64,000 bases of DNA, taken from assembly GCA_965178125.1 (NCBI GenBank), contig OZ237762.1, positions 124,001-188,000 on the forward strand, read 5' to 3'. A program made the position numbers and the translations under genes. The notes below the pieces were generated by a model, which saw only the letters and a program-made list of their open reading frames with translations, had not been told where the DNA came from and made no database searches. How positions within the stretch are numbered: the stretch's first letter is position 1; each line of letters starts with the position of its first letter. This document shows positions 1,686 to 24,537 of this stretch, one piece after another. Origin of the DNA: Bilabrum cf. latius (taxonomy: Eukaryota).

Positions 1686-2036
1686 TTAGTGGTCTCTTTT
1701 TGTCTTTTTAATTTTTTCTTCTCTCTTCTTCCTTTCACATTCACTTCTTTCAACACGATACATCAGCTCCTAGACGTGTTTCACTTGCTCTTCATATTCT
1801 AACTGTTCCAATGTACTTTCGAGTTTCTTGATAATATTGTCGAATTTAAAACTAAAGACATTCTAACGATAACCATCACCTTTGTCTTTTGGTTTCATCC
1901 ATACATATTTATCAAAGTGATTCTCAATACTTTTACCTATACTACTGACTACATCATCGACACCTACACCTTTAACAAGACATTCATCTATAAAATTTTG
2001 AGATAGTTCAATTTTGATATCTTCTTTATCTGACAT
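1686..2036 (-). CDS. Hypothetical viral protein, 116 aa (2 in-frame TAG)
   Basis: ATG 2036 follows the CGCCAAAAAATATCCACTATATATATA motif; reads through TAGs to TAA at 1686. Confidence 0.65.
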
Positions 2037-2037
2037 T

Positions 2038-2066
2038 ACTATATATATAGTGGATATTTTTTGGCG
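2038..2066 (-). promoter_or_regulatory. Putative viral promoter motif (CGCCAAAAAATAT)CCACTATATATATA; also at ~3088-3114, 13536-13564, 14507-14520 and 17091-17107
   Basis: Recurs within a few bases upstream of five ATGs (2036, 3084, 13568, 14501, 17087). Confidence 0.6.
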
Positions 2067-2204
2067 AAAGTAATAAACTAGTCTTAAGATATGACCGCCC
2101 GAAATTGCGGTAATATTATAGCTATTTAAGATATATTTCCGCAATTCTGGGCGCGTAGGTGTATTGAATTTTTAAATTTATTTGAATATAATATTTTTTA
2201 CCTC

Positions 2205-2527
2205 TTGGTGCGTTGTGGTCTTGGTCTAGTGATATCGTGATTGTTTCACAAAGTCAAGGTCGTGGGTTCGATTCCCGCCACTGACATCGCCGTAAGTCGT
2301 TCTGTAAGTCATTTTCATGACAAAGCACACGTCTTGCAAGTCTTTGAAGGGAGTTTGGATACTGTAGAAGTAGTCGTAAGTGGTTGTAGCAGACTTAGTC
2401 GTAAGACTTAATAGGGTTTCAGGTGCATCAGTTCACATTCTGGCCCCGCTACAACAATGACTTACGAATGACTTCGCCAAGTAGTCAAACCATCGGTATA
2501 ATTACTAGCTCAAAGAATTTTTTTTTT
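2205..2527 (+). ncRNA. tRNA-like, putative Pol III structured RNA
   Basis: A-box-like TGGTCTAGTG at 2222; T-arm GTGGG-TTCGATT-CCCGC at 2262-2278; imperfect long inverted repeat at ~2294-2313/2456-2474; T-run at 2518-2527; locally higher GC; no ORF. Confidence 0.55.
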
Positions 2528-2661
2528 ATTACATAGATATGACTTAATATTAATAACTTTATTATTAAGACATATGACCGCCCGAAATTGCGGTAATATT
2601 ATAGCTATTTAAGATATATTTCCGCAATTCTGGGCGCGTACCCGTATTGAGTTTTTAATAA

Positions 2662-3084
2662 TTAATCCATATTAGGGGGTTTCTTATACACGCTAGCAGG
2701 ATCAAAAATATCCACTGGAAAGTCTGCTTTGTGCCATCCCCATACTACTTTATAAATATCTGTGCTCGTGTCGTGTTCAACTTTATGATAAAAAATACAA
2801 TCATAAGCAATACCATTCTAATTACGCACCTCTTGCTCCATCTCTTCAATTATCTATCCTACCTTTAACTTTGTAAAGCCTCCTTCACTTACATATGTCT
2901 TTATATGACCTCTATTATTTACTTGTATCTAATCTTTATCTATTACAATGTCTTCAGGATCTCCTTCAAGTTCATCATCTAAGTAAACCTTTTGAGATTT
3001 AAGTGTTGGGTCTTCTCTATGTGGTAAGAATAAGAATGAATACTCCATATAAAGTAAGTCTTCACACGGTGATACTGCTGCCAT
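2662..3084 (-). CDS. Hypothetical viral protein, 140 aa (3 in-frame TAG)
   Basis: ATG 3084 has the same upstream motif as the ORF starting at 2036; ends at TAA 2662; bracketed by palindromic repeats. Confidence 0.7.
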
Positions 3085-3271
3085 AACTATATATATAGTG
3101 GATATTTTTTGGCGTAATATTTAAACTAGTCTTAAGGTATGACCGCCCCAAATTGCGGTAATATTATAGCTATTCAAGATATATTTTCGCAATTCTGGGC
3201 GCGTACCCGTATTGAGTTTTTAAATTTAGTCAATATTTATAACTTTTAAATATTAATTAATAATTTACGAC

Positions 3272-5158
3272 TCACATATTGAGCTACTTTCTAAGTTTCA
3301 TAAGTTGAGCCTTAGTTAGTTTCTTACCTCCACTGGTCAAAAGACTTCCACCACTAGTTAAAAGACCTGCTCCAACACGTTCAGCTAAGTCATTCACTTC
3401 ATCGGGTAAGTATTCACTTACTGCTTGTCTTGCTTTACGAAGAGCTGGTTTCACTTTATCAAATTTAGCTTTAGCGTTCTTTCCAAAGTCTACCACTTTA
3501 CGTCCTAAGTCTTTAGCTTTGTTAAAGGCTCTCTTAAAGAATTGCATCACTTTACGACGTCTTCCACCTAATACGTTCTTAGAGTAGTTCATATTAGAAA
3601 ATGTATAATTAGAAGGTTTAGCCACTTTCTCAGGGTCAACAGAAGCACTATCTTCACGCCATTCAATAGCGGCACCTCTAGTATTCACGATAATCTTGTC
3701 ATAGGCACAGAATAATTGAGCTTTATATCCTTGAGACATAGCAGCGGTTGGGGGTTCGTCATAGGCTACTTGAACACGAATACTAATAGGGTCAGCACTG
3801 TTGCTTTGAATAGTTTCAGGAGTATTTAAATCACTAAGTCTAAATAAGAGCCAGCCATTAGATCCGTATACTTTAGAAGCACCTCCTACAGTTACATCTA
3901 AGTTAGTAAAAGAAGCATACTCACTATTTGATCCATTTCTTTCACTAAGTCTAAAGATATCGTCTTGTGTAAGTTCTCCTAAAATAGAACCCTAAGACCT
4001 AAGTTGTACTTTAATATTGTTAATGGCAAGTGTTCTATGAGGTGTACCACTAGCTTCTCCATATTGAGAATCAACTAAGCACACAGCAAACCAAGAAGGG
4101 CAAGTCTAAAGTTGATAATTATTAAAAGTATGGACACCTTTAGTAGTGATAGGATTATCAAGTTTAGGCTCTTCATGTAGTTCAAAGTCAACAGAGTTGT
4201 AGAATATTTGTTTAGGTACTTTCTTCAAGAAGTTAAGATGAGTATTATAAGTAAAGACATCAAAATGGATCTAGCAATCGGATAAAGCAAAAGCATAGTC
4301 TCCATTCCAATCACTTGAAGTATTAAACATCTTATCAATTAAGTTATTTCTCATTTGTAAATTAACATTTAATTGTGGATGATCAACAAAAGGTCTAGCA
4401 TTACCACCCATCATATATTGGAAAGGACGTGCAAGAAGTGCTTCAGAGATTTCAATATGTAATTTGACATAGTCTTGAGTTGGTGTTACATTATTATTAG
4501 GTATTGGAGTATTAGCATCCACTTTTTCAAGTGTTGCGCGGTAATTCTTACCAGGACCGCGAGCTTCCATAATACTATCATCATTTACACCCCATTGAAG
4601 GACAGACTTAGCAAGACCATTTGCGGCAGTATTAAATTCCCAAGTGTTATCAGCCTAAAAGACAGGACTTATTTGTGCTAGAGTGGCACGGTCAAGACTT
4701 CTAGCTATTAAATTGACTAATTGATAAGGTGATGAACTACGAGATAAGTCTCCCATTTTAACTGTGGAACTTGTGATCATTGAATTTACCATAAATGTAG
4801 AAGGGGCTACCTTATTGACGATATCAGTTTGAGCTACTGCTCCATTGTTCTAACTATCATAGATGTATACGTCAAATGAAACTCTTAGACGGGGATTACT
4901 GTCAGTCATTCCTTGATTTGATGGCACGACAAAAGTGTAATTACTTCTAAATGCATTAGTTGCGCTAGAGTTACCACCATCTGGTTCATAGTGGTTTTGG
5001 AACTTGGAAGAGTATCCAAGGGTAGTTCCTAGAGTAATAGCTTGACTATCACCCACAAAGTTGAGTTTTTCGTCAGCTATTTGAGTTACTGGTAGTTCTG
5101 AGACGTCATCTACGACTTTGCTTTGTGCTGCTACAGGTACATTATCCATATCAGACAT
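3272..5158 (-). CDS. Virophage major capsid protein, 628 aa (TAG=Gln)
   Basis: Track ORFs 4850-5158, 4271-4570 and 3284-3739 are in one frame separated only by TAG. Virophage-MCP-like segments (ISEALLARPF, NNYQL*TCPSW, LSERNG) and a basic C-terminal tail with GG sites; TGA at 3272. Confidence 0.88.
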
Positions 5159-5200
5159 TATAAATATATTAAGACTAAAGATATTTATTTATTTTTTACT

Positions 5201-6127
5201 TTAAGTTATTAACTTTTTACTTTTAAATAGAGCTTTTATATTAAGTCCTTGTCCAAAAGTAAAGGGTATTTCGTATAAGTTTCCAAAAGTATCTCTAAAA
5301 TACGGTACTATACTATAACTATTAAATGCTGATCTATAGAACTATTGCCATCTATGATTTCCTCCACTACTAAAGTTTATTTTAATAAAACTCGTTCCTG
5401 TTGTATTGTCTATCTTGAAATCACTTAAGATATTTTCACTTTGTATCTCTGTACTAGATGTACTTTTATATGATGGCGTAAATTCTGGAAGTATTGGAAG
5501 TGATGGACTAATAATTTGAATATACTCCATAGTAGGAAACTAATCTAAGGTAGAAGCACTCTATTCATTATATCCATCTAATAGATTTATATAAGTATCA
5601 CTCTTGATGTCTTTACCTTCATCGTCATATTCAAATGTCTCAAATATAGAGAATAAAGGAAAGTTAAAACTTAAAGTCCACGCACTTGTAAAAGCCGCTA
5701 AACGGGTGAAACTAAAAGTTTTAGTCTTACCGTGATATTCAAATACTATACTATCAGTTGGAATACTAGCATCTCCACATAAATCACTAAGAGTATTATT
5801 AAATTCATTAGATAGGGTCTTAAGACTATAATATAACGGCTTAGTTAAGACAATATTACGAGTGTAAGTAGTTCCATCACTCTTCTTCACAAACGACATC
5901 TTATAAATTGACTAATTATCGCTATTCTTTACTTCTTTACTTGCTACAAATAAAGGAATACGACATTTAAGAGTCCATCGGTCAAGTGATAATAAGTAGT
6001 TTTGTGAATTTGTCAAGATATTACCTTGACGCTGTTCATGTATTGATACTGGTCTATTAGTATTAATAGATGTTATAGTATCCTATGAGTTAATATAAAA
6101 GATATCTGGTTCTTGAATCTCCACCAT
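5201..6127 (-). CDS. Virophage penton (minor capsid) protein, 308 aa
   Basis: Lies directly upstream of the MCP. Motifs: NYLLSLDRW..RIPLFV, IISPSLPILPE, NILSDF, RDTFGNLYEI, IKALFKSK. Several in-frame TAG; TAA at 5201. Confidence 0.82.
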
Positions 6128-6487
6128 TCTATAACATTTATCAAGAAAATAAGTCTTGTCTAATGCCCCAAATTGCGGTAATATTATAGCTATTTAAGAT
6201 ATATTTCCGCAATTCTGGGCGCGTACCCGTATTGACTTTTTAAAAAAGTTTTTATTAATTATTTGACTCATTGAAAAAATCCAATATTCCGAAATTTTAA
6301 AAATTTAGTATCTTAAGATATAGTATAATACCAGCGCCCCAAATTGCGATAATATATTAGGATATTAAGATATATTTCCGCAATTCTGGGCGCGTACCCG
6401 TATTCATTTTTATATTTTAGTCTTTTTAATATGGCCACCTTATAGATATCAATTTTCAATATCTAAAAATTTATGGTATATGTCATA

Positions 6488-7036
6488 TTAACTAATTATC
6501 AAAGTAATAAGTTCATCATTATCTAGTCCTCCTCCATACTTTTTAAAAGCCTTCTTTAATTGACTATTAAACTAATCATTCGTCAAGTGATGGAATAATA
6601 TCCTGAGCACACACCACCTCCCGCATGTGGCAGAGTTATTTGATATTAATTGATTCTTTTGATTTGAATAGTCAACATTAATACCAGCATCTAATACGTG
6701 ATCTATTAGAAGACTACTTCTATCATATAGCTTCTATGGGTCTATGACTCCTCCTACGACTGGAATATGAGTATCAGGTAATTGACCATAACTATCCCAA
6801 AAATAAAGAGTATTCTTTGATTTATTAAATATGACCGCAGTATAATGACCGCTCATTGTTGCTCCTTCTACTAAGTTAGGATAATAAAGGACAAATAAAG
6901 GATTTTCATCTAGAAATTGTCTGATGTTATTAGTATCACTTATTTCTTCATACATTATAACTGGTATATGCTACTTTGTAAATGTAAAGTATAGTCTTTG
7001 TACCTCTTCAGGACTTAATGCAGTGGTTATATCCAT
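6488..7036 (-). CDS. Virophage maturation cysteine protease, 182 aa
   Basis: Catalytic triad motifs SGHYTAV, FWDSYG and ATCGRWCVLR; reads through TAGs to TAA at 6488. Confidence 0.88.
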
Positions 7037-7055
7037 ATACTTAATACTAAGAAAA

Positions 7056-8123
7056 TTAATATACGAACATCTATTTAGGACAAGTGATAAAATTATACGT
7101 CTTATTAATACATAGCCATCTATTACCTTCTCCAAACAATTTATAAACACGATTTATAAGACTTGCATCAAATCCTAAATATGCTTTCATTAAATATTTG
7201 CTAAATTTCCATAGATTTCTCTTAAATAAAATAATATTATGACTTTCCATGACTATTGACCTAGTATTCGCATAATCATTCGTTAAATGACTTATAACTA
7301 TCATATTTGTTGAGCTATGTCTTCCAACTTCACCTATACGCTTAATTAAGAATAACGCCCTCTACTTTTTATCCCCGTTTAAGGCTTCATAATCATCAAA
7401 TACCACCACAGAAGGACCCTATTTTGCCCATTCTTCATACAATGGAGTAGTGGTAAATGATGCCTTAGTCTTGTCTTTACTTGTTGGTTTCATTCTTTCT
7501 ATCTCTATCTCTCTTTTAATTAATTCATGAGGTTCTAATGACTTCTTTTCCTACCTAAAGAATATCTTTTCTTCTTTATATTTCCTCATTAAGTCATCAT
7601 AACTATCGTTTCTATCTACTGCTACTAATTTATCAATATCAATAAAATTACCATATTTTAAATAAGTTGGATTTGTTTCCTGTACTGGTGTAATGACTAA
7701 AACCCTCTTCTTTGGAATGAACATATGATAATACTTGAGTAAAGACTTAGCAATATAAGACTTACCAGCACCAGCCTAACCACTTAAATAGTGTATTTGT
7801 CTTTTGGTCTCATCATCAAAGAATGGGACTATTTCAAACTAACTCTTATCATCTATTCTTAACTCGTTAGTCTTTCTAACTAGTTTTTTATTTCCATTCA
7901 CTAGCTTACACATCTCTTCACGTAATGCTTTTTTATTCTTCTCATATTTAATTGCTCTCTTTCCATAATACTCTTCAAGTAAATCATCACTTATATCTTC
8001 TGGAGTTATGACTTTTTCCCCTACATCTTCACTAAAAAAGACGCTTTTGTTCCTCTTCTTGTGCTTGTATTCTCTTAAAGCAACTAAATGACTATTTGGT
8101 ATTTCATCGTATGATAATGACAT
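7056..8123 (-). CDS. FtsK/HerA-family (A32-like) DNA packaging ATPase, 355 aa
   Basis: Walker A G*AGAGKS (TAG at 7776-7778), Walker B VVVFDDYE, VGRH motif; TAA at 7056. Confidence 0.9.
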
Positions 8124-8268
8124 TATATACTATATGTTAATATTTATTATTTTTCTAATAATAAGTGGGTTTAAAAGGTATATTGTGAGAAGTAGCCATT
8201 TCAAATATTCATTTTAGAGTGCACAGTCTTAAGAATATGATTAAAATATCATATAAATATATAGAATT

Positions 8269-8790
8269 ATGGATCACAAACTTCTAATTTCAAAAAGATA
8301 TATTAAATCATTTTATAAGTACTCATGTAAAGTTAATTAGTACTATAAGAAAGCAGAAGAGTAGCGTAATATGATGACAACTGATAGAGTAGATTGCTAT
8401 ACTAATTATATGACTTGTCTGCTAATTGCTCGTAAGTATAGAGAATGTATTATCAATTGCAGTAAAAAGTACTATTGTGATATGAACTTTACGTTAAATG
8501 ATAACGGATATGTATCGTCTTCTTTGGATCACTTGAAAACACTTAACTTTGACTATGCTAATTCAATGAAAATAAATGAATGTATAGAACAATTTAAACA
8601 ATCCGTTGAGTGGGAAAGGTTATTTAAAAAAGACTTTTTTCAAATGTAGTTAATTTATGAATATCTAAAAATTTTCAGACTTAAGTGCTATTTACATGAC
8701 ATACGACCAGATAATCCCCTCCATCCGACAGAAACAGTTAATAAACTTAACGAAGAAGACATTGACGAGCTATTTTATAGTGACTGGTGA
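8269..8790 (+). CDS. Hypothetical viral protein, 173 aa
   Basis: ATG 8269, three in-frame TAG, TGA at 8788-8790 immediately before a palindromic repeat. Confidence 0.65.
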
Positions 8791-8984
8791 GACGACCGCC
8801 CCAAATTGCGGTAATATTATAGCTATTTAAGATATATTTCTGCAATTCTGGGCGCGTAGGCTGTTAGAGGTTTTACATTTTCGGGTCAATCTAATGAAAA
8901 TCTCACAATATAGGGCGCCCCAAATTGCGGAAATATATAAGTATCAAGAAAATTATGTCTGCAATTCTGGGCGTTTAGGTGTAT

Positions 8985-9803
8985 TCAATTATGTGAAACT
9001 AATTTAACGACCCTTTTATTGAGCTAGTCTTCTAAATATTTAATTATAATACTTACATCTTTACTATTGAACGTATTAAAGTATTGATATACTGGTTTAA
9101 TAAGTCCTAATTTACGTACATCATTCTTAAGTCTATCAATAACTCTATTTTTTAATTTAAATGGAACTGTTGGAAGTAATAAACTTTTTAATCTTGTAAT
9201 AGTCAAGTAAAGAAAGCCTACATCGGGATTCTTTATAAGTTGTTCAATCTCTTCCTGTTTCTTCTTTTGCCCTAATTCGTCATATATAACATCTAGTCTT
9301 TTTAATATCTTGAAATATTTTCGTTCTTTTTGTAAGTCTTTTATGTCATCTATCATCCTATCTGCTACTTGTTTAGGCTTCATTTTCAATATCTTACCTC
9401 CAATATCATATAATATACTAACCTCTTCAATATATCCAGTATAGACCCAACTTTCAACGAATATCATAGGATTATTCTACTATTTTAAAGATTTTAATAT
9501 TTTAGGTCTATTAGTATCAAGAAATGTATCTAAAGAGACGCCATTATCATCATATTCAACGTTATAAATATGTATTAATCTACTACCTCTTAAGGTCTTT
9601 AATTCATTTATAACACTATTGACATCAGACAATTTAACGGGAGAGTATAGGTCTATGTCTCCAGCCCAAAGTGAAAGCATATTATGAGTAAATGAATATG
9701 AACCATTTAAATAAATATCACTTCTATTTATTTTAAAAGACTTGAATATCTTATTATCAAATCGTGAATAATACTTTAGCTACTACTTTGTTAATTTAAC
9801 CAT
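8985..9803 (-). CDS. Putative nucleotidyltransferase-fold protein, 272 aa
   Basis: NGS-x13-DID motif (NGSYSFTHNMLSLWAGDIDLY); joins track ORFs 9480-9680 and 9024-9467 through TAGs; TGA at 8985. Confidence 0.6.
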
Positions 9804-9837
9804 ATATTAATAAGAAATATTATAGTTCTTTATTATA

Positions 9838-10281
9838 ATGGACGATTTCATAAGACAAAGACTATAGCAACTAGGTAAATCACCCTCTAATGCCAAAGTC
9901 AACAATTTAAAAGACGAATTTAAGCAAAAACTACTTGAATTATTTGAAGACTATCAAATGAATGGTGTTCAAGGTGGTTCAAAAGTTGGACGCTTTTTTA
10001 AAAAAGTAGGTCGTAAATTCAAGAAAGTAGGGCGAACAATTAAAAAAGGTATTAAAAGTAATGTAGGAAAGGCAATACGAACAGGTCTTAAGTTTGTAGC
10101 CCCTGAAGTTGGTGTCCCTCTTGATGCTGCACTTAAGACTGTAGGACTTGGAAAGGCTAAGCGTAAGAGGAAACCTAATCCAAAAGCTAAAGCAAGAGGT
10201 AAATTAGTGAGTGCGGTAATGAAGAAGTATGGCGTAAGTCTAGGAGAAGCAAGTAAAATATTAAAAGAAAATGGTATGTAA
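9838..10281 (+). CDS. Basic putative virion core / DNA-condensing protein, 147 aa
   Basis: K/R-rich after VQGG|S (possible protease site); C-terminus RGKLVSAVMKKYGVSLGEASKILKENGM; TAA stop. Confidence 0.65.
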
Positions 10282-10320
10282 ATTTAATAATATTATCTAT
10301 TATCATAATATAATTATACG

Positions 10321-11763
10321 ATGTCTAAAAAAAAAACAGCAGTATTGGAAGACTTACTCGATGGACTTGTGGAAAGTAGAGCCCCTACAAGTCAAGCAAG
10401 ACGAAAGGTAAGAAACGAAGAGAGAGCCATAAGAGCAGCTATAGGAGAAGCTAAACGAAAACAAAAAATTCAATTAGAAGAGGACTTTATGCCATTAGAA
10501 GAAAAGAGAAAATTAAAAAGAATAGCAAATCTTATGAAAAGGACTTTAAAAAGAGTTAAAGATAACAGTAAGAAAGGTAAAAAGTATAAAGTAGCAGATA
10601 TAGATCAAGTTGTAAGACTAGCTAAAGATAATGAACTACTTGATGAAGATGCTGAAGCTATTGCTAAGATGATATAGAATATTCCATATATGAACTCATC
10701 TAATACTCTATTTCAAAAAGGTAAAGCTGAGTCAAAACTTAACGACGCATTAAATAACTTATTTATTGAAGCAGAAGAGATAGACAATTTACCTAAAGAT
10801 GTCAAAGACTTAGAGAATGACTTAACAGTAGACTAGTTGAAGAAGTTTCTTAAAGAGAGAGGTGTAAGTGATTCAACTTTAAATGGTCTCTCTAAGGCTC
10901 AACTTAATTCAATGGCATCAAGACTTGTAAAAGTTAGACAAAGAGCAAAAGGAACACAAATAGTACCTCTATTAGAAAGATTAGGAGATAAAAAGTCAAA
11001 AGGCTATGCTTTGGAACGATTACGAAGCCAAACTGATCGAGTTAAACTAAAAAGAGATGTACTTAATAAAAGAATGGAAGCAATAAATGATATTTATAAA
11101 ACAAAAGCCACATCTAAAGCACCAGTACTAAAAGATAGACTTAAAGCACTATTAGGTGATGAATATGATGGTGTGCCAATAGATGATATGTAGTATTATG
11201 ATTTATAGAGCTTATTTCAAGATATTAAGACTGGAAGACAATCGGGACTTGACAGTAAAACTAGATTTGTAAATTTAAATAGAATCAAGTTTGATGACGC
11301 AAAGAAAGATATTGAAAGACAATTATCACTAAGAAAAAGACAACCAAACCCATTTAGTCGTGCAGAACCGTCAGGAACTCCACTTAAAGAAAGACTTAGA
11401 CGAGCTAAGGAAAAAGATCCAGACTTACGAAGAGAAGCCGCATTAAGTGATGTAATGAATGAAGCTGCTGAATAGATAGCAAGAGGTAATGAACCTTTAG
11501 ATGATGAGACAGAAGGGACACTATTAGAAAGACAACCAGATGGAGAATTTGTAGCAAGCGATGCAGGTGAAGATCTTGGTAAAGGTCAAGAAGCAAGAAC
11601 AAGAGCAGCACGAGCAGCACAAGAACGGGAAGAACAAGAACAAGAAGCACAAGGTCAATCATCTAGTGGAGCAAGTGAAAGTAAGACTGGTGAAGGTTCA
11701 GGTCTTAATAAGAGACTTGATACTCTAATATCTTGGTTAGATTCAAGATTAAGAAGTCTTTAA
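10321..11763 (+). CDS. Charged helical protein with a SAP-like motif, 480 aa
   Basis: Single frame broken only by TAG; LTVD*LKKFLKERGV resembles the SAP consensus; TAA at 11761. Confidence 0.7.
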
Positions 11764-12006
11764 ATGGTATATACTATAATATTTTAATTTAAAAATATTA
11801 CATTGTAAGAGGTGGCTATATTAAAAATGACTAAATTATAAAAATCAATACGCCTACGCGCCCAGAATTGCGGAAATATATCTTAATATCCTAATATATT
11901 ATCGCAATTTGGGGCGCTAGTATTATACTATATCTTATACTACTAACTTTTTAAAATCTCGTAATTTAAAAAAAAAATATCTAGTCTAGCTAATATAATA
12001 TAAGTA

Positions 12007-12729
12007 ATGGCAGGAATATACAATCTCTTAAACAAAAATGAATATGAATTAAAGAGTAAGTCTATTGAAGTAGAATCAATTAAAGCAGAAGGCTTTGATG
12101 GAGCCGCTAACTTTGGACTTAACTTCAATGGTCAATCACTACCCTATATTATGAGTGGTACTAATGAAGATGCTAAGTCTTTCACATGGAGAATAGGTAA
12201 AAACTCAGCATCAGCAGGTGCATCTATCTCAATTAATGTCGCAGGTGATGGAACTCAAACCAGTACTATGACAGCAACCAACTTCTTATCATTTACCGGT
12301 ACACATGTTGCATCTTGTAGTGATGTTGCTTCTAGTTTACCAGCTGGTATTGGGTCAGTGGTTACTCTTGATAGTGTAGTTAATAAAGGACCCACAACTA
12401 ATGAATATGTCGTAAGTCAAGCATCTCAACATTCACCACCTTTTGGAGTATATGTAGGAGAACACCATGATGATGGTAAAGTACTTGTGGCATCTTTAGG
12501 TGATGGAGCTGTGAAAGTAAATAAAAATGGAGGAGATGTAAGTGCGGGTGACTACTTAATAAATAGCTCTGATAGTGGATATGTCTACGCGCCTAATCCT
12601 CAACCAGTCTCTGTTGATTAGACTATTGTAGCAAAAGCTCTAGTAGATGAAGACTTTTCAAGTGGTACTTCTACTGATGCTAATGGAGTAGAATATAAAG
12701 TCGTACCTTGTATTTTCTTAACAGGATAA
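12007..12729 (+). CDS. Fibre/tail-like protein with a C-terminal chaperone-like domain, 240 aa
   Basis: FTGTH...SLGDGAVKVNKNGGDVSAGDYL...TIVAKAL...PCIFLTG resembles the C-termini of phage/NCLDV fibre proteins. Confidence 0.6.
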
Positions 12730-12772
12730 TTGAGTTTAATTATAGAAATATCTTTTTTATTAATATAATAAA

Positions 12773-13411
12773 ATGGATGGAATCAGTTCAAGCAGTGTCG
12801 TTGTAGGAGGTTTAAGTGTCTTACTACCTCTAGCATACTCTGGTGGTATGTCTTGTTGGTAGTGGTTATGGGATAAACCTTTACATAAACGTAAAAAAAT
12901 ATGTATCTGTGTGCCTGAAGGTAGTGGTAAGTCTACCGCTTGTCAAATATTACGGTCTAGTTCTAAAGACTGTTTACTTGTTGATTTAGATAGTACTCTA
13001 GGAGTATATGTCTAGGAGCCCGAATTACTTATGAAACTAGACGAATGTAAGTTAAAAAGTGATTGGGGTAATTATAATATACTTAATAGAAAAGCCAGTA
13101 AAGAAGCCCTTCAATGGGTAAAAGATAACTGGTTGAATGAAGGTAGCGAGAAGAGAGTAATATTCTTTACTAAAGAGTTAAGTCTAGCTAATGAGTTATT
13201 TAAAAAAGAAAGTATAGTTGTATGTCTTCCATCTAATTCACTATTCTAGAAGACTTTAAAGAATTAGAAAGTAGATAAATAGAAGTCTATGTTAGAAGAC
13301 CGTAACTCTTATATCAAAGAGTTGAACCCTTCTAGCTATTACATTTATAATACTTACGAATAGCTTCACGATAAATTGAGGAATTGCCTCTAGTTAGGGT
13401 ACCAAATATAA
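12773..13411 (+). CDS. Small P-loop NTPase/kinase with an N-terminal hydrophobic segment, 212 aa
   Basis: ICVPEGSGKST Walker A and LLVDLD; 7 in-frame TAG; TAA at 13409. Confidence 0.7.
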
Positions 13412-13567
13412 TACAAATAAATACAAAATAATACAAAAGTCAATACGCCTACGCGCCCAGAATTGCACAAATATATCTTGAATAGCTATAATATTTCCGC
13501 AATTTCGGGCGGTTAGATCCTAAGTTTAATTATTCCGCCAAAAAATATTTACTATATATATATAGAA

Positions 13568-13912
13568 ATGAACTTTAATAATATTTATAACATAAAAAGT
13601 TTGAACAATATATTAAAAAAGGTAAAGACAGCTTTTGATCAATTTTTTGATGGAAAGGACCTTCGTATTTGTGAAGTTGAAGAGCTAAAAGAAGTAGAAA
13701 AAGACTAGATTATTACCTACGAAGATATTAAGTCTATCCTAGGTCTTAAAATGGCTATGTTGCCTAAATATGAAGGAATGTTTTAGATGGCGCAAGATTA
13801 CAAAGATTTTCGTATTATTAATGGCTTACTTGATTTAGAAATTATGAATGAGTTAAAACGTGTGGAAAAATCAATACGCCTACGCGCCCAGAATTGCGAA
13901 AATATATCTTGA
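13568..13912 (+). CDS. Hypothetical viral protein, 114 aa
   Basis: Preceded by CGCCAAAAAATATTTACTATATATATA; its TGA stop lies inside the downstream palindromic repeat. Confidence 0.6.
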
Positions 13913-13994
13913 ATAGCTATAATATATCCGCAATTTGGGGCGGTCGTATCTAACCTGTCAATTTGTATTTTTATAATTAAAATACATACTGATA

Positions 13995-14501
13995 TTACAA
14001 TTTATAATCTAGACAAATATTGTCTGGTTGTTTAGAAGTATTACATAATAGACTTAACTTTTGATCTATTTCTTTTTCTACTCCTGTTTTAGTCTTTTCG
14101 TCTTCTTGTTCCATCTCTTGGACAGTCTCGTTGAATTTATCCACATCACCGTAAGTCTTTATAAATACTTGTTTTTTCTCGGACATCTTGATTTTGCTAT
14201 CCTCCACATATTGCTCTCCTTCAATATTACATAATATATTATTAAGATGGAGATAACTTTCTGCTTTGTCATCGTGATCTGTGCTTAATACTTCAACATA
14301 CTTTGTTTTAAATCTAAGTTCCAAGTTATGACGTATTTCACTCATATGTTTATGGATCTCTTTTGGGTCTTCTATTTCGCTCTCTTCATACATTGCTATT
14401 ATAGTACTTATGACATCACTAGGGTTTTCGTCTCGTATTTTAAGTATTAAACTAAAGACATCAAAGTATTCATTTAAAAACTTCCAAATTGTGTTTTTCA
14501 T
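13995..14501 (-). CDS. Hypothetical viral protein, 168 aa
   Basis: Open ORF with TAA stop; CCACTATATATATA upstream. Confidence 0.7.
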   Translation of the reverse strand: MKNTIWKFLNEYFDVFSLILKIRDENPSDVISTIIAMYEESEIEDPKEIHKHMSEIRHNLELRFKTKYVEVLSTDHDDKAESYLHLNNILCNIEGEQYVEDSKIKMSEKKQVFIKTYGDVDKFNETVQEMEQEDEKTKTGVEKEIDQKLSLLCNTSKQPDNICLDYKL

Positions 14502-14520
14502 TTACCTATATATATAGTGG

Positions 14521-15201
14521 TCATTTTAATAAGATATTTTTAAACTTTGTAAAGTTATCATGAATTTTATCACTATCACCCCAGCACACTTTAGCATACC
14601 ATAAGTTGCTGTCATACATATCGGTCTCATCAAAATGAAGATGTCCTAATACTCGCTTTCTCATTTTATCAGCGTGTGATTTACCTCTTCTTAAAGCATC
14701 AGGATAAGTCTAAGTATTCTTTTTGTTAAAATATACCTTTGTATCATTAATCTCTACACAATAAACATATTCAGGTTTATCACTCACTGTAAGATCACTA
14801 ATATTGATTTTTGGTTTTGGTTTCTCTTTAATTGGTTTCTCTTCAATGACTTCACTCACTACTTCACTACTTGTATCACTATATGTATCATTCAAATAGT
14901 CTTCCTCTTTATTATCCTCTATGTCTTCGCTATCTAATTCAACATCTTCCAATATAGCCTATTGTCGTTCTAATTGTGGAGGTTTTAACTAGATAGGTTC
15001 TATTTTAGACGGTTGTCTCACTAAATTTATAGTTGCTATCTCGTCCCCTTCATCATCTATTTCACCCTATAAACTTGAATAATGCTTGTTAATCCATAAC
15101 ATTTTTAAGTCATCACGAGACCACTTGTACTTTTCACTTAACTTGACTACTCTTTTTAGAAGGTCTTTATTTTTGTATCTTGTTATATTTAACAATTCCA
15201 T
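14521..15201 (-). CDS. Acidic hypothetical protein, 226 aa, with a possible degenerate DUF5754-like C-terminus
   Basis: ATG 15201 reads through TAGs to TGA at 14521. Confidence 0.65.
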
Positions 15202-15431
15202 ATACTTATTATAAATAATTTCTTTGACTTTGTTTTATATTAATATGGTAAATACTAGAAAAATTTAATATTTCAAAAGTCGTATCTATACACTGGCTAA
15301 CATAAAATGACATAATTATAAAAATCAATACACCTACGCGCCCAGAATTGCGGAAATATATCTTAATATCCTAATATATTATCGCAATTTGGGGCGCTGG
15401 TATTATGCCATAAAGTATATTACTAGATTAA

Positions 15432-17087
15432 TTATCTCTATCTATCAGAATAGTCTTTCGCAAGTGGTCGTATTTGGTCTTTCCCATAATCCTGTTCTAA
15501 TTTCTTACGGGTAATCCATTCATTAAACTTATTAGAATATCCCTTATATTTGACTAAATATTCAATAAGTCTATCTTTATTTTGTCTTTTATCTAAAAAC
15601 TTCTCTATTGTGTCTGGTTCTACTTCTAAACCTTCAACATCATCAATTTCGGGCTCTTCACTTTCTTTGTCTATGTCATCATTTACCTTATCTTCGTGTT
15701 CTACATTCTCTATCTTCTATAACTGTGAAGCATTAAAGAATCCAGTAAGAGGTTCTCCCTCTTTGTCCATTACTTTATATTTAATCCTCTACTTAGGATT
15801 TCTTGGTTTGGTCTTCTATCTAACAGTGAAGACTTCTCTAGACCAATTGAATAAATTCCCTTTAAACTTGTTCTTCTCAAGTAATACTCTAACTCTATCC
15901 CCTACATTAAGATCTTTATCATTCCCGTCAAAATTATTTGATAATTTCTTATTTTCAATTCTAGATCTAACTACTTCTAAATTTTCAGGTTTCATTGCTT
16001 CTATTGGAGACATTCCTATAGTGTTGTGTTTTCTCTTATTATAAGCTCTTACTAGTCTCTATAATGACGTATGCCAAACACCATCACTGTCATTCTTTAT
16101 AGCAAAGTCTTTTCTAATCTATTCTTTTATAGTCCTGTTAAGTCTTTCAACTGCACCATTAGACTATGGATTTCCTGCGATGGTGAATAGTGGTTTTATG
16201 TCATTGTCATTCATAAATTTAATATATGCCTCTTTATTAAACTCATTATCACTTAACATAACAGTCGGTTTTCTCCAATTAGGTTTCTTAAATAGTTTCT
16301 TCATCTCACGAATTATATTAACTAATGTCTTATCTTTTAATGAAATACTCCATAGGTATTTTGTGAATATATCCATTATATTTAATATCCAATTATAGCC
16401 GTCATTAGTGTCTGAATACTTTTGCATGTCTATTAAGTCCAAGGCGTAAATTGAGAAAGGCTTAGTAGGTACAAAAGAACTTACTGCTGACTGTTTAGGT
16501 CGTTTTTTCGTGAGCTAGTGTAGCATTTGGCCATTTAACCACTTTTCAACTTGTCTTCGTTTTATTCTCCTATCTTTTTGTCTAGCTAGGTCATATAACG
16601 CATCACGACTGACTACATTACCTTCTTCATAATATAGTTTCTTTAATATTGGCTTATATTTAAATTCGTCTTTCTTTGGTTTGTCTTCTATTTCTATTAA
16701 TTTACCGGTTGGTTTATTAAGTTTTTTTGTCTAAGCTTTAGTCATCTTATAAAAAAGGCGAACAAGGTTAGACTATTGAACACTAAAATGAACTTTATTT
16801 ATTAGGTTATACAAGGTAAAATAGTCTCCATCCTTCTATATTGAGTTAATAATCCCACCTCTTCTAAACAATGGCTTTCCCTTGATATTTGAGATGTACG
16901 ATATATAAGAGTATAAAGGTAGCTTTTTAATACTAGCTTTGGTGGTTGGCACCTCTTCAAACCCTTTATCAAGTAGTCCCTTAATAGTGGCGTCTAAATC
17001 ATCACTATCTTTTTGATTTTTTGTTGGCTTATCACCGTACGTGTATGATATTTTACCTCTAGTGTATGTCTTGCCTTTGTTTGACAT
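15432..17087 (-). CDS. Retroviral-type (rve) integrase with C-terminal chromodomain, 551 aa
   Basis: DLIDM, MDIFTKY, LSDNEF, P*SNGAVERLNRTIK, YNKRKHNTIGMSP, LNVGDRVRV; chromodomain IEKFLDKR...EYLVKYKGY...NEWI; TAA at 15432. Confidence 0.92.
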
Positions 17088-17185
17088 ATCTATATATATA
17101 TAGTGGCGAAAATAACTTAATAGAATAAAACACACATTGACTTAAAGATAAAACAACTAATAACAATATAAACCAACCTTAAACA

Positions 17186-17851
17186 ATGGTAAATTTCTCA
17201 AATGCAAAGATATACAGACTTTACTCACTTAATGATCCTTCAAAAGTATATTATGGCTCTACTTGTTAGACATTGAGCTAGAGAAAGGGAGGACACACAA
17301 AAGACTATAAGAATTATAAGAAAGGAGAATATCCTTTTATTACTTCATTCATTATTTATGACTTAGGTGATGTAAAAATTGAATTAGTAGAAAAATGTCC
17401 GTGCAAAGATAGAGAAGAGTTAGGCAAGATTGAAGGAGGGTATATCAGGAAATATAAATGTGTCAATAAGTGTATTGCAGGACGAACTAGAAAAGAGTAT
17501 TACAATGAGACAAAAGAATAGAGATAGAAAAGATGGAGAAAATACTATGATGATAATAGAGGCAATATAGTCGCTAAGCAAAGACTATACGCCGAAAAGA
17601 ATAGACATATTATAAATGAACGTCAAAATCTAAAGTATTCGAATAATAAAGAAATGATGCAGTAGTATAGAGACAAAAATAGAGACAAAATAAAAGAAAA
17701 TCATAAAAAGTACGAAGAAAATAATAAAGAAAAACTAAAAAAATATTCTCTTGACTACTATCACAAGAATAAAGACAAGATAAACGAAAGACGAAGACTT
17801 AAAAGAAAGCAATTAAAAGAATAGAAGTCTAAGGTTAAGACATCCACTTAA
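17186..17851 (+). CDS. GIY-YIG endonuclease, 221 aa
   Basis: AKIYRL...VYYGSTC*TLS*RKGGH...IELVEKCPCKDREEL...EGGYIR...CVNKCIAGRT; TAA at 17849. Confidence 0.88.
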
Positions 17852-17908
17852 TTATATTATTAAATATATGTAATTTAATAGTATATATTGGCGTTAATTA
17901 AACGAGTA

Positions 17909-18442
17909 TTACTTCTTATATTTCTTCTTTTTAGAGTAGCATGTAAAGCAATACCAATAAGTGGTATCAGGTTTTAATAGATACCTCTCGCACCTTTTAC
18001 ACTATTTGTATCCTTTCTTTTTGTAATAGCAACTAAGACAAGTCTTTTTCCAAGAGGTCTTTTCAATCCAGTCTTCGCAATCAGTGCATCTCTTTTTCTC
18101 TTTTAATATGTCTTCATTCATTTCGTGTTTGATGGACTTAATATGACTGCTATAACTTGACTTTTTAACAACACAAGAGCATACATCACAAGTCTTATAC
18201 ATACAAGCCTTATACACATCATGATCCTTTTCGAATGTGTTATTAATACATTCAGAACCTAATTTAAATATATCACCAGTTGGGGGATACTCAACGAAAT
18301 GAACTTCCTTAATTTGGTGATCACAGATACACTTTCCGTCTTCTTCTCTAGTCTCTCCAGCTGGTATTAATAGAGGGGCTATCTTATTCCAGTCATTAAT
18401 CTTTAGCTTATTGATTATGAAGTTACGACATTTATAGCACAT
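17909..18442 (-). CDS. Multi-zinc-finger/ribbon protein, 177 aa
   Basis: CICDH...LGSECI, a C2H2-like CDVC..HIKSIKH and repeated CxxC; TAG read-through gives YK*CKRC; TAA at 17909. Confidence 0.72.
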
Positions 18443-18599
18443 TATAATATAGTATATACTATAATAATATATTATTTTTAAGTCTAATTAAACGAGATGT
18501 CTTAAGCTCGATTCAAATTTGGGCGCCCGAAATTGCGGTAATATTATAGCTATTCAAGATATATTTCTGCAATTCTGGGCGCGTAGGCGTATTGACTTT

Positions 18600-19007
18600 T
18601 TAATTTAATATTTTTAATTGTTTCAGTCTTGCGTCCACTTTAGACCTATAGTCATCTAACCATTTTTCCAAAGTATCCCCTTTAACATACCTTTTTACAT
18701 CTAATACTCCATTGGCTAGTTTTGTTAAGTAGTCCTTAATAGCATTATCACTTCCCCATAAGATTTTATGACTGTGATATTTTGAGCTATTAGTATCGGT
18801 AGTCTTCCCGTGTCTTCGGTAGTATAGGCGTCGTCTTTTAGGGTCAATATGGTTATTATCTCCATACTTACCAATCAAATCAAAGTATTGAGCATATCGT
18901 GCATCACCAAAGCTAGTGATATACTTACCATTTTTGAATACATCATATTTCTTATTTCTACGAGTAGAGGGTTTATATTTGAATCCATCAATAATTATCT
19001 CATACAT
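18600..19007 (-). CDS. DUF5754-like protein typical of NCLDV/virophages, 135 aa
   Basis: STRRNKKYDV...SFGDARY..Y...HIDPKRRRLYYRRH...SKYHSHKILW. Confidence 0.7.
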   Translation of the reverse strand: MYEIIIDGFKYKPSTRRNKKYDVFKNGKYITSFGDARYAQYFDLIGKYGDNNHIDPKRRRLYYRRHGKTTDTNSSKYHSHKILWGSDNAIKDYLTKLANGVLDVKRYVKGDTLEKWLDDYRSKVDARLKQLKILN

Positions 19008-19015
19008 AATATATT

Positions 19016-19225
19016 ATGATACAAGATTTATTAACTTAGTATATTGTCGGTAAGACTTGTAAATTAGTTATTAAATAGGTGAAGACTACCAAGACATATC
19101 ATAAGACAAAATCATTTGTTAAGGACTAGTTAGAAGAAGTACTCAATACATTGATACAAGTTAAAGGACATTCTAAATATGAACACAAGATCAAATGGAC
19201 CACTTCAAGTGGTATGACTTAGTGA
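19016..19225 (+). CDS. Possible small viral ORF, 69 aa
   Basis: Open only if TAG=Gln (4 TAG); ends in TGA; no recognisable motif. Confidence 0.35.
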
Positions 19226-19296
19226 ATATGTAAAATTGAATACGGGTGAGCGCCCAGAATTGCAAACATAATTTTCTTGATACTTATATATTTCCG

Positions 19297-19371
19297 CAAT
19301 TTGGGGCGGTCATATCTGGAGATACAATTTGGGGCGGTCATATCTGGAGATACAATTTGGGGCGGTCATAT
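19297..19371 (+). repeat. 28-bp tandem triplication of one palindrome arm
   Basis: CAATTTGGGGCGGTCATAT(CTGGAGATA) at 19297, 19325 and 19353. Confidence 0.9.
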
Positions 19372-20638
19372 TTATTATTAGTTATTTTAAAATATCTCGT
19401 CAAGTGGTTAAGTCTTTTTGTGATATCCCGTTAAGTGGTCAATAAAATGAACGGTAAGTCAAAAAAATTAATCAAAATAAAGAAGTAGTTGATTATTAAT
19501 TATTGAAGACACCTAAGCGCCCAGAATTGCGACAATATCTCTTAATATCCTAATATATTTCCGCAATTTCGGGCCGTCATTTCTGGACATTTAATATAGC
19601 ACATACTAGAAATATCTTTATTACAAAATTACACCTCTATAAGATAACTATGTCAAAATTAACAAAATATAAAACTCAATACACCTACGCGCCCAGAATT
19701 GCGACAATATATCTTAATATCCTAATATATTACCGCAATTTCGGGCGCTAGTATTATACTATACCATATTTAATTATCCTATATTTTCCATTTAATCTAG
19801 TGATTAATCATTTCAAAGTAATACACTTGACATAAACCAGTTCATTGAGTCATTTTAAAGTCATCGTCAAAACATTTATCATTTTTAAGTTATCCCGCTT
19901 TGTATTCCTTTATATCATATACTCAAACAAAGGACTTTAACATATTTAAAGAATTATGAAAAATAAAAATCAATACACCTACGCGCCCAGAATTGCGGAA
20001 ATATATCTTGAATAGCTATAATATTACCGCAATTTCGGGCGATAGATTAAAGGATGTATTTTTAAGGGGATACCCTTATATTTGAAGTTTTGAAGAGATG
20101 ACATATAAAAGACTTTATAAAGTGATTAATATCTCCTTCTAGTTATATTTAAATATTCAATTATTTAAGTATAGATTGACAAGTAATAAAAAAAGAGATA
20201 AATTAAGTTGATATATTAGTTTAGTTTTATTTATTAATTTAAATTTTTCATTGGAAGTATTAAAAAGACTTTAATACTTCTGTCAATCTCTTTAAGTATT
20301 TATTTAGTTATTTTCTAAAGTGGTAAATGTCAATTGATACTTAAAACCAAATCATAATATAAAACTCAATACACCTACGCGCCCAGAATTGCGAACATAT
20401 ATTCTTAAATGACTATATATTTCCGCAATTTCGGGCGGGCATATCCTAAGACTTAGGCTAGGGATTCACTCAACAGATTAAGTAAAGTAAAGGTCTAACA
20501 GATAGACATTAACGGCGCGAAGGTATTAAATTAGGTAGATATATGAATAAATAGCTATTAAATTATTATGTTCAAGTGAAGGACATTATGAAGGACTACG
20601 GCTTAAGATGTTGTGAAGTGGTTAATATTGACCTCTTA

Positions 20639-20739: not shown

Positions 20740-21456
20740 ATCCTCGTCCACCCGGTGGAGTCGAATGCCGTGCTGCTGCCCCAGCCCATCAGTGGCCCGC
20801 TGGCCAGCTGCAAAGCCCCGCATCCTCGTGCACCCGGTGGGGTCGAATGCCGTGCAGCAGCCCCAGCCCATCAGTGGCCCGCTGGCCAGCTGCAAAGCCC
20901 CGCATCCTCGTGCACCCGGTGGAGTCGAATGCCGTGCAGCAGCCCCAGCCCATCAGTGGCCCGCTGGCCAGCTGCAAAGCCCCGCATCCGCGTCCACCCG
21001 GTGGAGTCGAATGCCGTGCAGCTGCCTCGTGCACCCGGTGGAGTCGAATGCCGTGCAGCAGCCCCAGCCCATCAGTGGCCCGCTGGCCAGCTGCAAAGCC
21101 CCGCATCCTCGTGCACCCGGTGGAGTCGAATGCCGTGCAGCTGCCCCAGCCCGTCAGTGGCCCGCTGGCCAGCTGCAAAGCCCCGCATCCTCGTCCACCC
21201 GGTGGAGTCGAATGCCGTGCAGCTGCCCCAGCCCGTCAGTGGCCCGCTGGCCAGCTGCAAAGCCCCGCATCCTCGTGCACCCGGTGGAGTCGAATGCCGT
21301 GCAGCTGCCCCAGCCCGTCAGTGGCCCGCTGGCCAGCTGCAAAGCCCCGCATCCTCGTCCACCCGGTGGAGTCGAATGCCGTGCAGCTGCCCCAGCCCGT
21401 CAGTGGCCCGCTGGCCAGCTGCAAAGCCCCGCATCCTCGTGCACCCGGTGGAGCCG
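20740..21456 (+). repeat. Host 82-bp GC-rich minisatellite, about 9 copies
   Basis: Unit starts at 20740, 20822, 20904, 20986 (internally shortened), 21105, 21187, 21269, 21351 and 21433. Confidence 0.95.
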
Positions 21457-22261
21457 AATCCGGGTGTTTTCCCCAGTCCGGGCTCACTGCCTGCTCTGCG
21501 TGGACCATACATCGTAAAACTTGTCTTAAATTGTCGATACGTGCTTCTAGGTCGGTGTCACGCAAGCTGATGTCTTACCAATACTTACATGTACCAACAT
21601 ATTAGAAATTGCTTCAGGCAGTGCTTATACAGACAGCTACTGCAAAATTGATCCCCGAGTTACGATAATATGGTCACAGATTATGCATGCTTGAACCATT
21701 TACCTGTTGCCGATGTTAGGGTATCTTACGAGTGGAGTGCGAGTGCTTGTTGGATGTGAGCGCGCACACACTGCTTGAATTCCGGTGCCACTTCGCAGCT
21801 ATAAGTGCGCGACTCGCTCAACGAAGGGCATTACTTATGCGCAAAAGAAGTCGCGGAGCATACACGCGCGATACTATCATACTAAAAGACAGAAGTGAGT
21901 TTGATTCAGTCAAGATGACTGGTGGTACCTTGATCGGATCAGCCTGCAGCCACACAGATTTTCCGGGCGCGAGAATCGTAAAGGCTTTTTCCCTAGTACA
22001 TGTACTGAATTAAGGACTCCAGATTTCTTCCTCATTTTGCAATTAGGAACTTTTGTACTAGCAAATTTTTGAGATATGCTCTCAATGTGTCTGTGGCCCG
22101 AAAGATTTGCTGGAGGTGGCCGTCGGCGTCATGATTTTCGCTTCGTGCTCGATGCCTGAAACCTCGATTTAGAAACAGCCAGCGGCAAACGATTCTACTT
22201 AGATAGACAAAGATAGTCCGAGGGCTCCGGATGGGGCCCCGCGGGGCAGAAAGGTTCGAAT

Positions 22262-23630: not shown

Positions 23631-24537
23631 CAATTACGCGGACCGGCGAGTGCCGCCGTTGGCTCCCGTCCGCGGCGGACGCATCGGACGCCATCCGCTG
23701 GGAACAGGCGTCCGCCACGCTCATGGCCGTCTGCCGCGGATTGAAGGACGAGGATCCGGAGCGGGTCGTGAATGCTGTCAATCAACTGCCATCCGAGCCG
23801 GGTGTCCACATGCTGGCGGTTGGTTCCGATGCAACCCCTGCGGATTGTGGTGAACCCCAGAAGTTGACGAGTTCAAATTTAGATTATGTTGATGCACTGG
23901 GCGCCGAGCCGACCAGGTTCCGCTGCTCTGCGATTTTAATACGGAATTAGAAACGTGCTATTAATCCCAGCCGTCGATATTGTCCGTGGAGTAGTTCAAT
24001 TCAGCTGATATCGCTTTCGAGAGGTCTCACCCCAAGCCCCTTGAAACATCCAGCCTCGTACGTGAGATGATTCATCCTTCTAATCTACGCACCGCACGTT
24101 CTGATGCCGCTTGGCAATCGTTTCGTTGATCCATGGATGCCACCTGGCGGACTACAGTGCAGAGCCAGGACACATCTAGCGCGCCTGCCCCACTTCCCGC
24201 AAGATTTGTCGGTATAGTGTCACCAAACGAATACGATCCAGCAATTGTCCCATGGCAGTTGCACGCTGCCAGCTCCAAGCATCGAGTACCGCCAGGCTTG
24301 TCCCTTCACTGCTCCGACTCGATGCTGCTCCATTCACTTGATTCATGCCGTTCGATGGATCGCAGCTGGTAGAACCGCATACCAACAGAAGTGCCTATGA
24401 CTTTTGGCGCAAAGGCATTCCTGTGAGGGTTTTGGTTGGACTGTGAATGTCGGATACTTCCAGATCATTGCCCCTCTCTCTATTTCCAAATCGCGTGCAG
24501 CGGCATACACCATGACAGCATTTCTGGTCATAGCCAT

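Follow-up and report, generated by a model that had tools for sequence, protein, structure and literature searches.

The plus-strand segment 2212-2522 of the window (the whole stretch of 64,000 nucleotides that was analysed) reads best, with a probability of about 0.5, as a tRNA-derived, Pol III-type, SINE-like RNA unit which is carried by a virophage. The unit has ~310 nt (311 nt as counted here). It would be of the type-2 Pol III kind, comparable to a tRNA-related SINE or to the master gene of a SINE, and it would consist of three parts: a decayed tRNA head with internal promoter parts, a body of ~200 nt with two hairpins, and a terminal T run. In the proposed mechanism the integrated copy is read by the nuclear Pol III of the host, with a start at ~2212 and an end in the T run; as RNA, the probable route, or as DNA, the module would have moved in one piece. 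Whether the unit is a cargo that benefits the virophage or a passenger we consider to be about even.

A first-pass annotation had described this part of the window as a tRNA-like, non-coding unit of Pol III layout in a slot of its own, with possible pairing between its 5' and 3' parts. The head, the B box, the T run and the ends of the unit speak for this description, but the 5'/3' pairing was not supported. The layout of a Pol III non-coding RNA, i.e., internal boxes, a T-run terminator and a structured RNA, is found in the module, with a weak A box. The positions of all parts and neighbours are given in Table 1.

Table 1. Window coordinates of the module, its parts and its neighbours.
Feature	Position	Strand	Remark
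Shared non-coding module, putative Pol III-type unit (tRNA-like head, structured body, T run)	2212..2522	+	
A-box-like motif TGGTCTAGTGA, also D-loop-like part	2222..2232	+	2 mismatches to the consensus
Anticodon-like arm, 5-bp stem TGATT/AGTCA, 9-nt loop GTTTCACAA	2238..2256	+	loop of 9 nt, not 7; no CTA
T arm GTGGG/TTCGATT/CCCGC, enclosing the exact B box GGTTCGATTCC (2265-2275)	2262..2278	+	Rfam T-arm match
Hairpin 1, with T4 (2312-2315) at its tip	2292..2337	+	46 nt, from the fold
Long imperfect hairpin, the inverted repeat of the first-pass annotation	2353..2490	+	138 nt, from the fold
Variable tip of the long hairpin; second haplotype with pair-preserving changes	2414..2446	+	contig comparison
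T10 run, candidate Pol III terminator	2518..2527	+	sequence
Virophage gene, 116 aa, 2 in-frame TAG; CCACTATATATATAG at 2039-2053(-) just before the ATG	1686..2036	-	
Virophage gene, 140 aa, 3 in-frame TAG	2662..3084	-	
Intergenic hairpin repeat, left slot boundary	2080..2172	.	
Intergenic hairpin repeat, right slot boundary	2563..2655	.	abuts the stop of gene 2662-3084(-)

The virophage element, its TAG codons and the slot

From base 1 to ~20600 the window has ~30% GC, and the remainder has 48-70%. The AT-rich part encodes a protein with the MCP_V20_C capsid domain (E 3.2e-07, above the cut-off) and an integrase with rve and Chromo domains (both above the cut-offs). Matches to an AAA ATPase and to a C57-like peptidase are below the cut-offs, and all virophage domain matches depend on TAG being read as sense. 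Judged from its sequence, the AT-rich part is an integrated virophage beside eukaryotic host genes. The virophage context named in the first-pass annotation is confirmed by the V20-type capsid domain, the rve and chromo integrase and the AAA ATPase. The adjoining host genes encode a polycystin channel, a cytochrome b561/DOMON protein, an inositol-phosphatase-type domain and FG-GAP repeats.

With the standard code no ORF of more than 235 aa is present in the AT-rich part. When TAG is read as sense, 20 ORFs of at least 150 aa appear, the longest of them with 638 aa, and no comparable lengthening is obtained in this part with TGA or TAA as sense. The 20 virophage genes hold 76 in-frame TAG in 5385 codons and, as they were defined, stop at TAA (15) or TGA (5). 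In the integrase one TAG stands at the Q of the conserved P-Q-S-N-G...E-R motif and another one in a column where 7 of 11 aligned homologues have Q. In the capsid protein, Q is found in 8 of the 12 cells opposite the TAGs of the window in two relatives, where Q may itself derive from TAG. As read from these frames and alignments, TAG is a sense codon in the virophage and in the host, and it stands for Gln in the virophage.

In the host part the longest ORF grows from 697 to 2008 aa with TAG as sense, and host Pfam domains run across TAGs. For the phosphatase-type domain 144 of the 149 best-hit proteins compared (P0025-P0173) align on both sides of the TAG, and a database protein from a standard-code call (P0024) ends exactly at this TAG. 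The residue is not named for the host because the tested column is variable (A 35, K 14, E 13 and so on down to Q 3 among 144 homologues). Since the host reads TAG as sense, it should supply the decoding tRNA, and the module need not do so. A host FG-GAP protein (24427-27105(+)) contains five in-frame TAG codons, and four of these directly precede the FG of consecutive, near-identical repeats; the other FG-GAP repeats of this protein carry W or L at the TAG position. As TAG is sense, gene calling with the standard code breaks up all genes of the element, and this matters for annotation whether the module is cargo or passenger.

The module is antisense to both neighbouring genes and has no virophage promoter motif. 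That it occupies a repeat-bounded slot of its own, as had been noted before, is borne out by the hairpin-repeat copies on both sides. The core of this repeat, GCAATTCTGGGCG, is absent from the host part and has 17 exact copies in the element, and 13 of 14 positions are paired in the arms of the left-boundary copy. The repeat is palindromic and ~60-100 nt long, with the arms GCCCSAAATTGCGG and CCGCAATTCTGGGC and a loop of ~28 nt, and its 17 copies lie within 2097-20466 (e.g., at 2097-2157, 2580-2640, 6165-6225 and 19251-19308). It is found after most genes, in both orientations and with a contig depth 10-20 times that of genes, and we take it to resemble the transcript-end hairpin signals of Mimiviridae.

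Along the minus strand, a stop codon is usually followed by the hairpin repeat and then, in four cases, by CCACTATATATATAG before the ATG. The last motif is situated directly upstream of the ATG at 2039-2053(-), 3087-3101(-), 14506-14520(-) and 17092-17106(-). With up to 2 mismatches it has 6 matches in the window vs 0.12 expected, and it may be a promoter that was taken over from the partner giant virus. Spacers with two tandem hairpin repeats and no cargo are present at 6165/6336 and 8798/8917. When the 311 nt of the module are subtracted from the 483 nt of slot spacing, ~172 nt are left, compared to 171 nt for the 6165/6336 pair, which would fit an insertion of the module into a spacer of this type.

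At least six copies of the hairpin repeat together with 28-nt tandem units are clustered at 19223-20466, just before the GC jump at ~20.6 kb. Situated at the host-proximal end, this cluster may be the terminal repeat region of the element; the other end of the virophage element is outside the window. The GC-rich host DNA at the virophage junction (20740-21500) contains 82-nt tandem repeats, with TGGCCCGCTGG every 82 nt.

With TAG as sense, the module slot contains no ORF of note on either strand. A small protein encoded in the slot was considered and rejected, as the best stop-to-stop frame reaches 84 aa on the minus strand and has no promoter motif. The GC content of the module is 40-51% vs 22-37% in the flanks, and such a GC island without an ORF would fit what is seen for RNA genes of AT-rich genomes.

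The tRNA-like head

The A-box-like motif and the exact B box within the T arm are present in the sequence where the first-pass annotation had placed them, and so are the non-canonical anticodon arm and the irregular acceptor stem. The latter is weak, with five of seven pairs between 2212-2218 and 2279-2285, two of which are G:U. The A-box-like motif starts 10 nt past the 5' end of the module, and the spacing from A to B box is 43 nt.

How often such motifs arise by chance was counted in the window and in shuffled sequences. The A-box consensus, used with 2 mismatches allowed, gave 303 matches in the 64-kb window vs 345 expected, and the A-box match carries no weight because its frequency is not above chance. 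The B box has one match in the window vs 0.35 expected, and at least one match was found in 29 of 100 shuffles. The window has one T arm with a 5-bp stem and a TTCRANY loop; when the AT-rich element is shuffled, at least one such arm arises in 9 of 300 cases, and for the whole window in 16 of 100. The motifs by themselves are only modestly beyond chance, which is only partly excluded from the sequence. However, the module recurs in other public contigs, and therefore the feature is real.

ARAGORN found no tRNA genes in the 64-kb window, and the calls obtained with relaxed settings were rejected since all of them had implausible introns. No Rfam family reached the gathering score in the window. 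At E up to 10 the T arm alone matches, with 11.4 bits to the tmRNA model; this tmRNA/tRNA match covers 2261-2278 and has an E of 0.022 in a search of 701 bases, and another match of this clan, which overlapped it with a lower score, was left out. For the other Rfam families (SRP, RNase P/MRP, 7SK, Y, vault, U6 or any other) there were chance-level matches at most at E up to 10. The tRNA identity which these programs and covariance models could have supported was not obtained, as no tRNA was called in the module.

The tRNA-like head alone has a z of -0.16, its fold is not a cloverleaf, and no D stem can be drawn. Among the features of a canonical tRNA it has the T arm with a 5-bp stem and a TTCRANY loop, and it lacks the 7-nt anticodon loop, the 7-bp acceptor and the D stem. 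By these features the module is based on a decayed tRNA and is non-functional as tRNA.

This bears on a possible role as suppressor tRNA which would let the virophage read its in-frame TAG. The element has 76 such codons across 20 genes, and a virophage tRNA of ochre type has been published (PMC6905037). However, the loop GTTTCACAA contains no CTA, and therefore the module is not a TAG suppressor. In addition, the loop is 9 nt long, no cloverleaf is formed, and the host part also reads through TAG, with the decoding tRNA expected from the host. We regard this explanation as almost certainly wrong.

The head could also be the dead relic of a once-working virophage tRNA gene which, together with a spacer, is now neither transcribed nor useful. 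Canonical tRNA genes are published for virophages (PMC6905037), and the head of the module is degenerate. The element has 270 GAA vs 84 GAG codons in 5385, and the host has 60-70% GC, in contrast to the GAA-rich element. The D-loop-like motif, the loop TTTCAC and the T arm presumably recall tRNA-Glu(UUC), and such a tRNA would have served these GAA codons. However, the degenerate form is near-identical in all four data sets described below, which is unexpected for free drift. Likewise, the shared unit takes in 230 nt 3' of the head and stops at the T run, and two-sided changes maintain the helices of the hairpins. A dead relic is improbable in our view.

Recurrence of the module and folding of its body

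The search of public runs gave 8 holders in 4 studies, and four of the nine listed runs were compared, i.e., X1 (organism A), X3 (organism B), X7 (organism C) and X8 (organism D). X1 and X3 hold the virophage, with slot-spanning contigs that correspond to 2138-2571 and 2138-2517, respectively. The depth of these slot contigs is 408.7 (X1) and 17.1 (X3), compared to 477-519 and 17.4-19.3 for the flanking genes. It shows no sign of extra host copies in X1 and X3, contig depth being a poor measure of copy number. The anticodon-like arm is without any difference in the contigs of X8, X1 and X3. At 2277 all four runs compared have A instead of G, by which the U:G pair of the T stem in the window becomes U:A. 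Position 2518 of the T10 run is A in X1 and X7, and also in part of the depth of X3.

The ends of the unit are seen in the other two runs. In X8 a 226-nt contig equals 2212-2414 with 1 difference, and its other 23 nt are unlike the window, with the boundary exactly at 2212. In X7 a 280-nt contig equals 2264-2522, keeps the TTTT at 2519-2522 and continues with 21 A-rich nt which are unlike the window. The two ends, 2212 and the TTTT, would be the start and stop expected for a type-2 Pol III transcript. Each end is given by one short contig of one run, and the RNA or DNA kind of the runs is a guess; none of the nine listed runs is classed as RNA, and two that were guessed to be RNA may be DNA. 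As the unlike flanks measure just 23 and 21 nt, assembly-graph artefacts are possible. That X7 and X8 have no cover over the virophage genes flanking the slot was not counted as evidence. Retrocopies of Pol III RNAs and SINEs are made up of DNA from the start site to the U-run, followed by an A-rich tract. We propose that the same module has other flanks elsewhere because its RNA or its DNA moved as a unit.

No second copy of the module was found in the 64-kb window, and the T-rich flanks show no readable target-site duplication. The window copy ends in T10 without an A tail, in contrast to the A-rich tract that follows TTTT in the X7 copy. A joint in X3 from 2172 to 2579 (side 25 nt) was rejected as an empty site because it lies within repeat sequence. 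According to the first-pass annotation, identity with a host SINE would have spoken against a regulatory RNA; in part this has come true, as the same module with other flanks is present in two further data sets. The recurrence with other flanks would point to a mobile or retrocopied unit at least as much as to a dedicated virophage regulator.

Exact DNA patterns of the head, the body and the hairpin repeat had no hits in IMG/VR, JGI metagenomes and GTDB genomes. Relatives of the capsid protein were absent from IMG/VR and from the phage collection. In a comparison of the slot with the phage collection only a 36-nt T-arm likeness to a tRNA-Gly of a Vibrio phage was obtained. As no relatives were found in these collections, no covariance model was built.

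The variation between virophage copies is a mosaic, as it also is in the module patch 2417-2445. In the gene at 2662-3084, 17 of the 19 differences to X1/X3 fall within 47 nt (2691-2737), and there are also differences at 2807-2808. The stretches 1600-2053 and 3194-3300 are identical to the copies in X1/X3. In the public read assemblies at least two related virophage lineages are found on contigs of 2-3 kb, with capsid proteins (3272-5158(-)) and integrases (15432-17087(-)) that are 86-88% and 75-78% identical, respectively.

The long imperfect inverted repeat, the T10 run and the T4 at 2312, which the first-pass annotation had listed, are all in the sequence; the inverted repeat pairs 2292-2316 with 2457-2477. 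Between 2292 and 2480 the body contains repeated GTAAGTC / AGTCGTAAG words plus the complement GACTTAC. We assume that these words have the letters of the consensus 5' splice site, and that GACTTAC is the U1-like complement.

When folded on the plus strand, hairpin 1 has -13.1 kcal/mol and a z of -2.62 (2 of 200 shuffles equally stable), and the long hairpin has -44.1 kcal/mol and a z of -2.70 (3 of 200 shuffles equally stable). The values for the minus strand are -9.4 and z -0.68 for the region of hairpin 1, and -42.7 and z -3.69 for the long hairpin. The latter does not fix the strand because the minus strand folds about equally well, whereas the T arm and hairpin 1 each fold better on the plus strand. 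The whole stretch 2200-2530 has a z of -1.26 and is no better than shuffles.

The anticipated pairing of CTTGGTG (2205-2211) with CGCCAAG (2475-2481) has -6.9 kcal/mol as a duplex. It is absent from the minimum-energy fold, and its 5' half lies outside the shared module. The fold contains a terminal stem 2219-2233/2501-2516 instead, which is matched by 134 of 2000 shuffles. A terminal 5'/3' stem was rejected, as it is not above chance and the 5' end of the module pairs better elsewhere in the unit.

For the tip of the long hairpin, X1, X3 and X7 have a single alternative version in common, in which 13 positions of 2417-2445 are changed and the remainder is identical. The pairs of this alternative haplotype were compared by hand, with the differences of the contigs set against the predicted folds. 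At 2425:2434 G:C is changed to C:G. The centroid fold shows replacements at 2420:2442 (C:G by G:C) and 2421:2441 (A:U by C:G), and in either fold 2417 retains a partner via changes on both sides. In total, no predicted pair is lost in the alternative haplotype, and 2-4 pairs, depending on the fold, change on both sides. The pair-preserving changes would be the best sign of a plus-strand RNA structure under constraint, in two versions. Since there are two haplotypes in all, the changes may be one event. With regard to the structural conservation which the first-pass annotation had made a test of its reading, helices are kept in one alternative haplotype, but this rests on two versions and a comparison by hand.

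The strand is of importance for a further explanation, in which the slot gives a minus-strand transcript made by the giant-virus polymerase, or a DNA hairpin acts in recombination or replication, and the tRNA-likeness is incidental. All neighbours are on the minus strand, the long hairpin folds equally well there, and the virophage is rich in DNA palindromes. However, the slot has no CCACTATATATATAG-type motif on its minus strand; all 6 matches in the window lie elsewhere. The better fold of hairpin 1 and the T arm on the plus strand also argues against it, on the opposite strand A:C would stand in place of the G:U pairs at 2263:2277 and 2417:2443, and the unit ends follow the logic of plus-strand Pol III transcription. 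We hold this explanation to be very unlikely.

The module could further be a dedicated virophage regulatory RNA, either VA/EBER-like or a TMER-like precursor of small RNAs. As part of the same reading, it would be a Pol III product of the provirophage in uninfected nuclei, with targets in the host or the giant virus. The anatomy is the same, and TMERs, too, are laid out as a tRNA-like head with two hairpins behind it (PMC4337559, PMC8223928). The helices preserved via two-sided changes, the presence of the module in virophage copies from the data of two further organisms (X1, X3) and its own slot between terminator-like hairpins agree with this as well. However, the complementarity check that had been suggested earlier gave little: elsewhere in the 64-kb window just 11-16 nt are complementary (E >=2). 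The terminal stem, being not above chance, also argues against a regulatory RNA. The other flanks fit a selfish or mobile unit equally, and SINE RNAs may also keep their structure. A dedicated regulator seems rather unlikely to us, and the SINE-like unit is the reading we prefer.

Comparison with known systems

The VA RNAs of adenovirus and the EBERs of EBV are viral Pol III transcripts; they carry an A and a B box, are strongly structured and end in a U-run. The module is like them in the boxes, the structure and the U-run end. In contrast, VA RNAs and EBERs have ~160-170 nt and a defined terminal stem, which in the module is not above chance, and the module shows no likeness to them in sequence or in Rfam.

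Virophage genes are presumably read by the polymerase of the giant virus in the cytoplasm, and they are thought to depend on its transcription machinery. If true, an internally promoted Pol III unit would be the one part of the provirophage that can be expressed by an uninfected host nucleus. If it is a cargo, the module would be the first non-coding RNA gene of its type in a virophage and a route for the integrated virophage to talk to the host before infection. If it is a passenger SINE, it would indicate that retroposons move into endogenous virophages and perhaps also leave them. In a more far-reaching version, the virophage would own a structured, tRNA-derived RNA that is made by host Pol III in the nucleus from a silent provirophage, at a time when the protein genes still await a giant virus. 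It would act as a latency-type regulator or sensor, similar to the TMER/EBER RNAs of herpesviruses, and be abundant enough for retrocopying into other genomes; we regard this as unlikely. In the literature on virophages and RNA polymerase III and on endogenous virophages and tRNA, in the parts that were accessible, no report of such a unit was found.

Paez-Espino et al. (2019, PMC6905037) reported canonical tRNA genes of virophages, in 18 high-quality genomes; Gln and one ochre type are among them. The module resembles these as a tRNA-related sequence in a virophage with an integrase. The published tRNA genes are called with anticodons, whereas the module is called neither by ARAGORN nor by Rfam and has a 230-nt extension.

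The TMERs of murine gammaherpesvirus 68 are closer. They are likewise virus-borne, with a tRNA-like uncharged head followed by hairpins, and a drive by Pol III from internal boxes is expected for both. In contrast to the module, TMERs have ~200 nt and hairpins of pre-miRNA size that are processed; the long hairpin of the module has 138 nt and is known here from sequence. Furthermore, the carrier of the module is a virophage of a protist.

With the tRNA-derived SINEs, such as rodent B2/ID and the BC1 RNA, the module shares a size of ~300 nt, a decayed tRNA head and an unrelated body. The different flanks, the ends that equal transcript ends and the A-rich tract after one copy (X7) are alike too. 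Unlike these SINEs, the module is located inside a virophage, has no readable target-site duplication and ends in T10 without an A tail. There is also no sign of many copies in the data of X1/X3, which is a weak difference, and we know of no partner LINE for the module. In its build the module would be closest to the tRNA-derived SINEs and the TMERs, and structural features of both are found in it.
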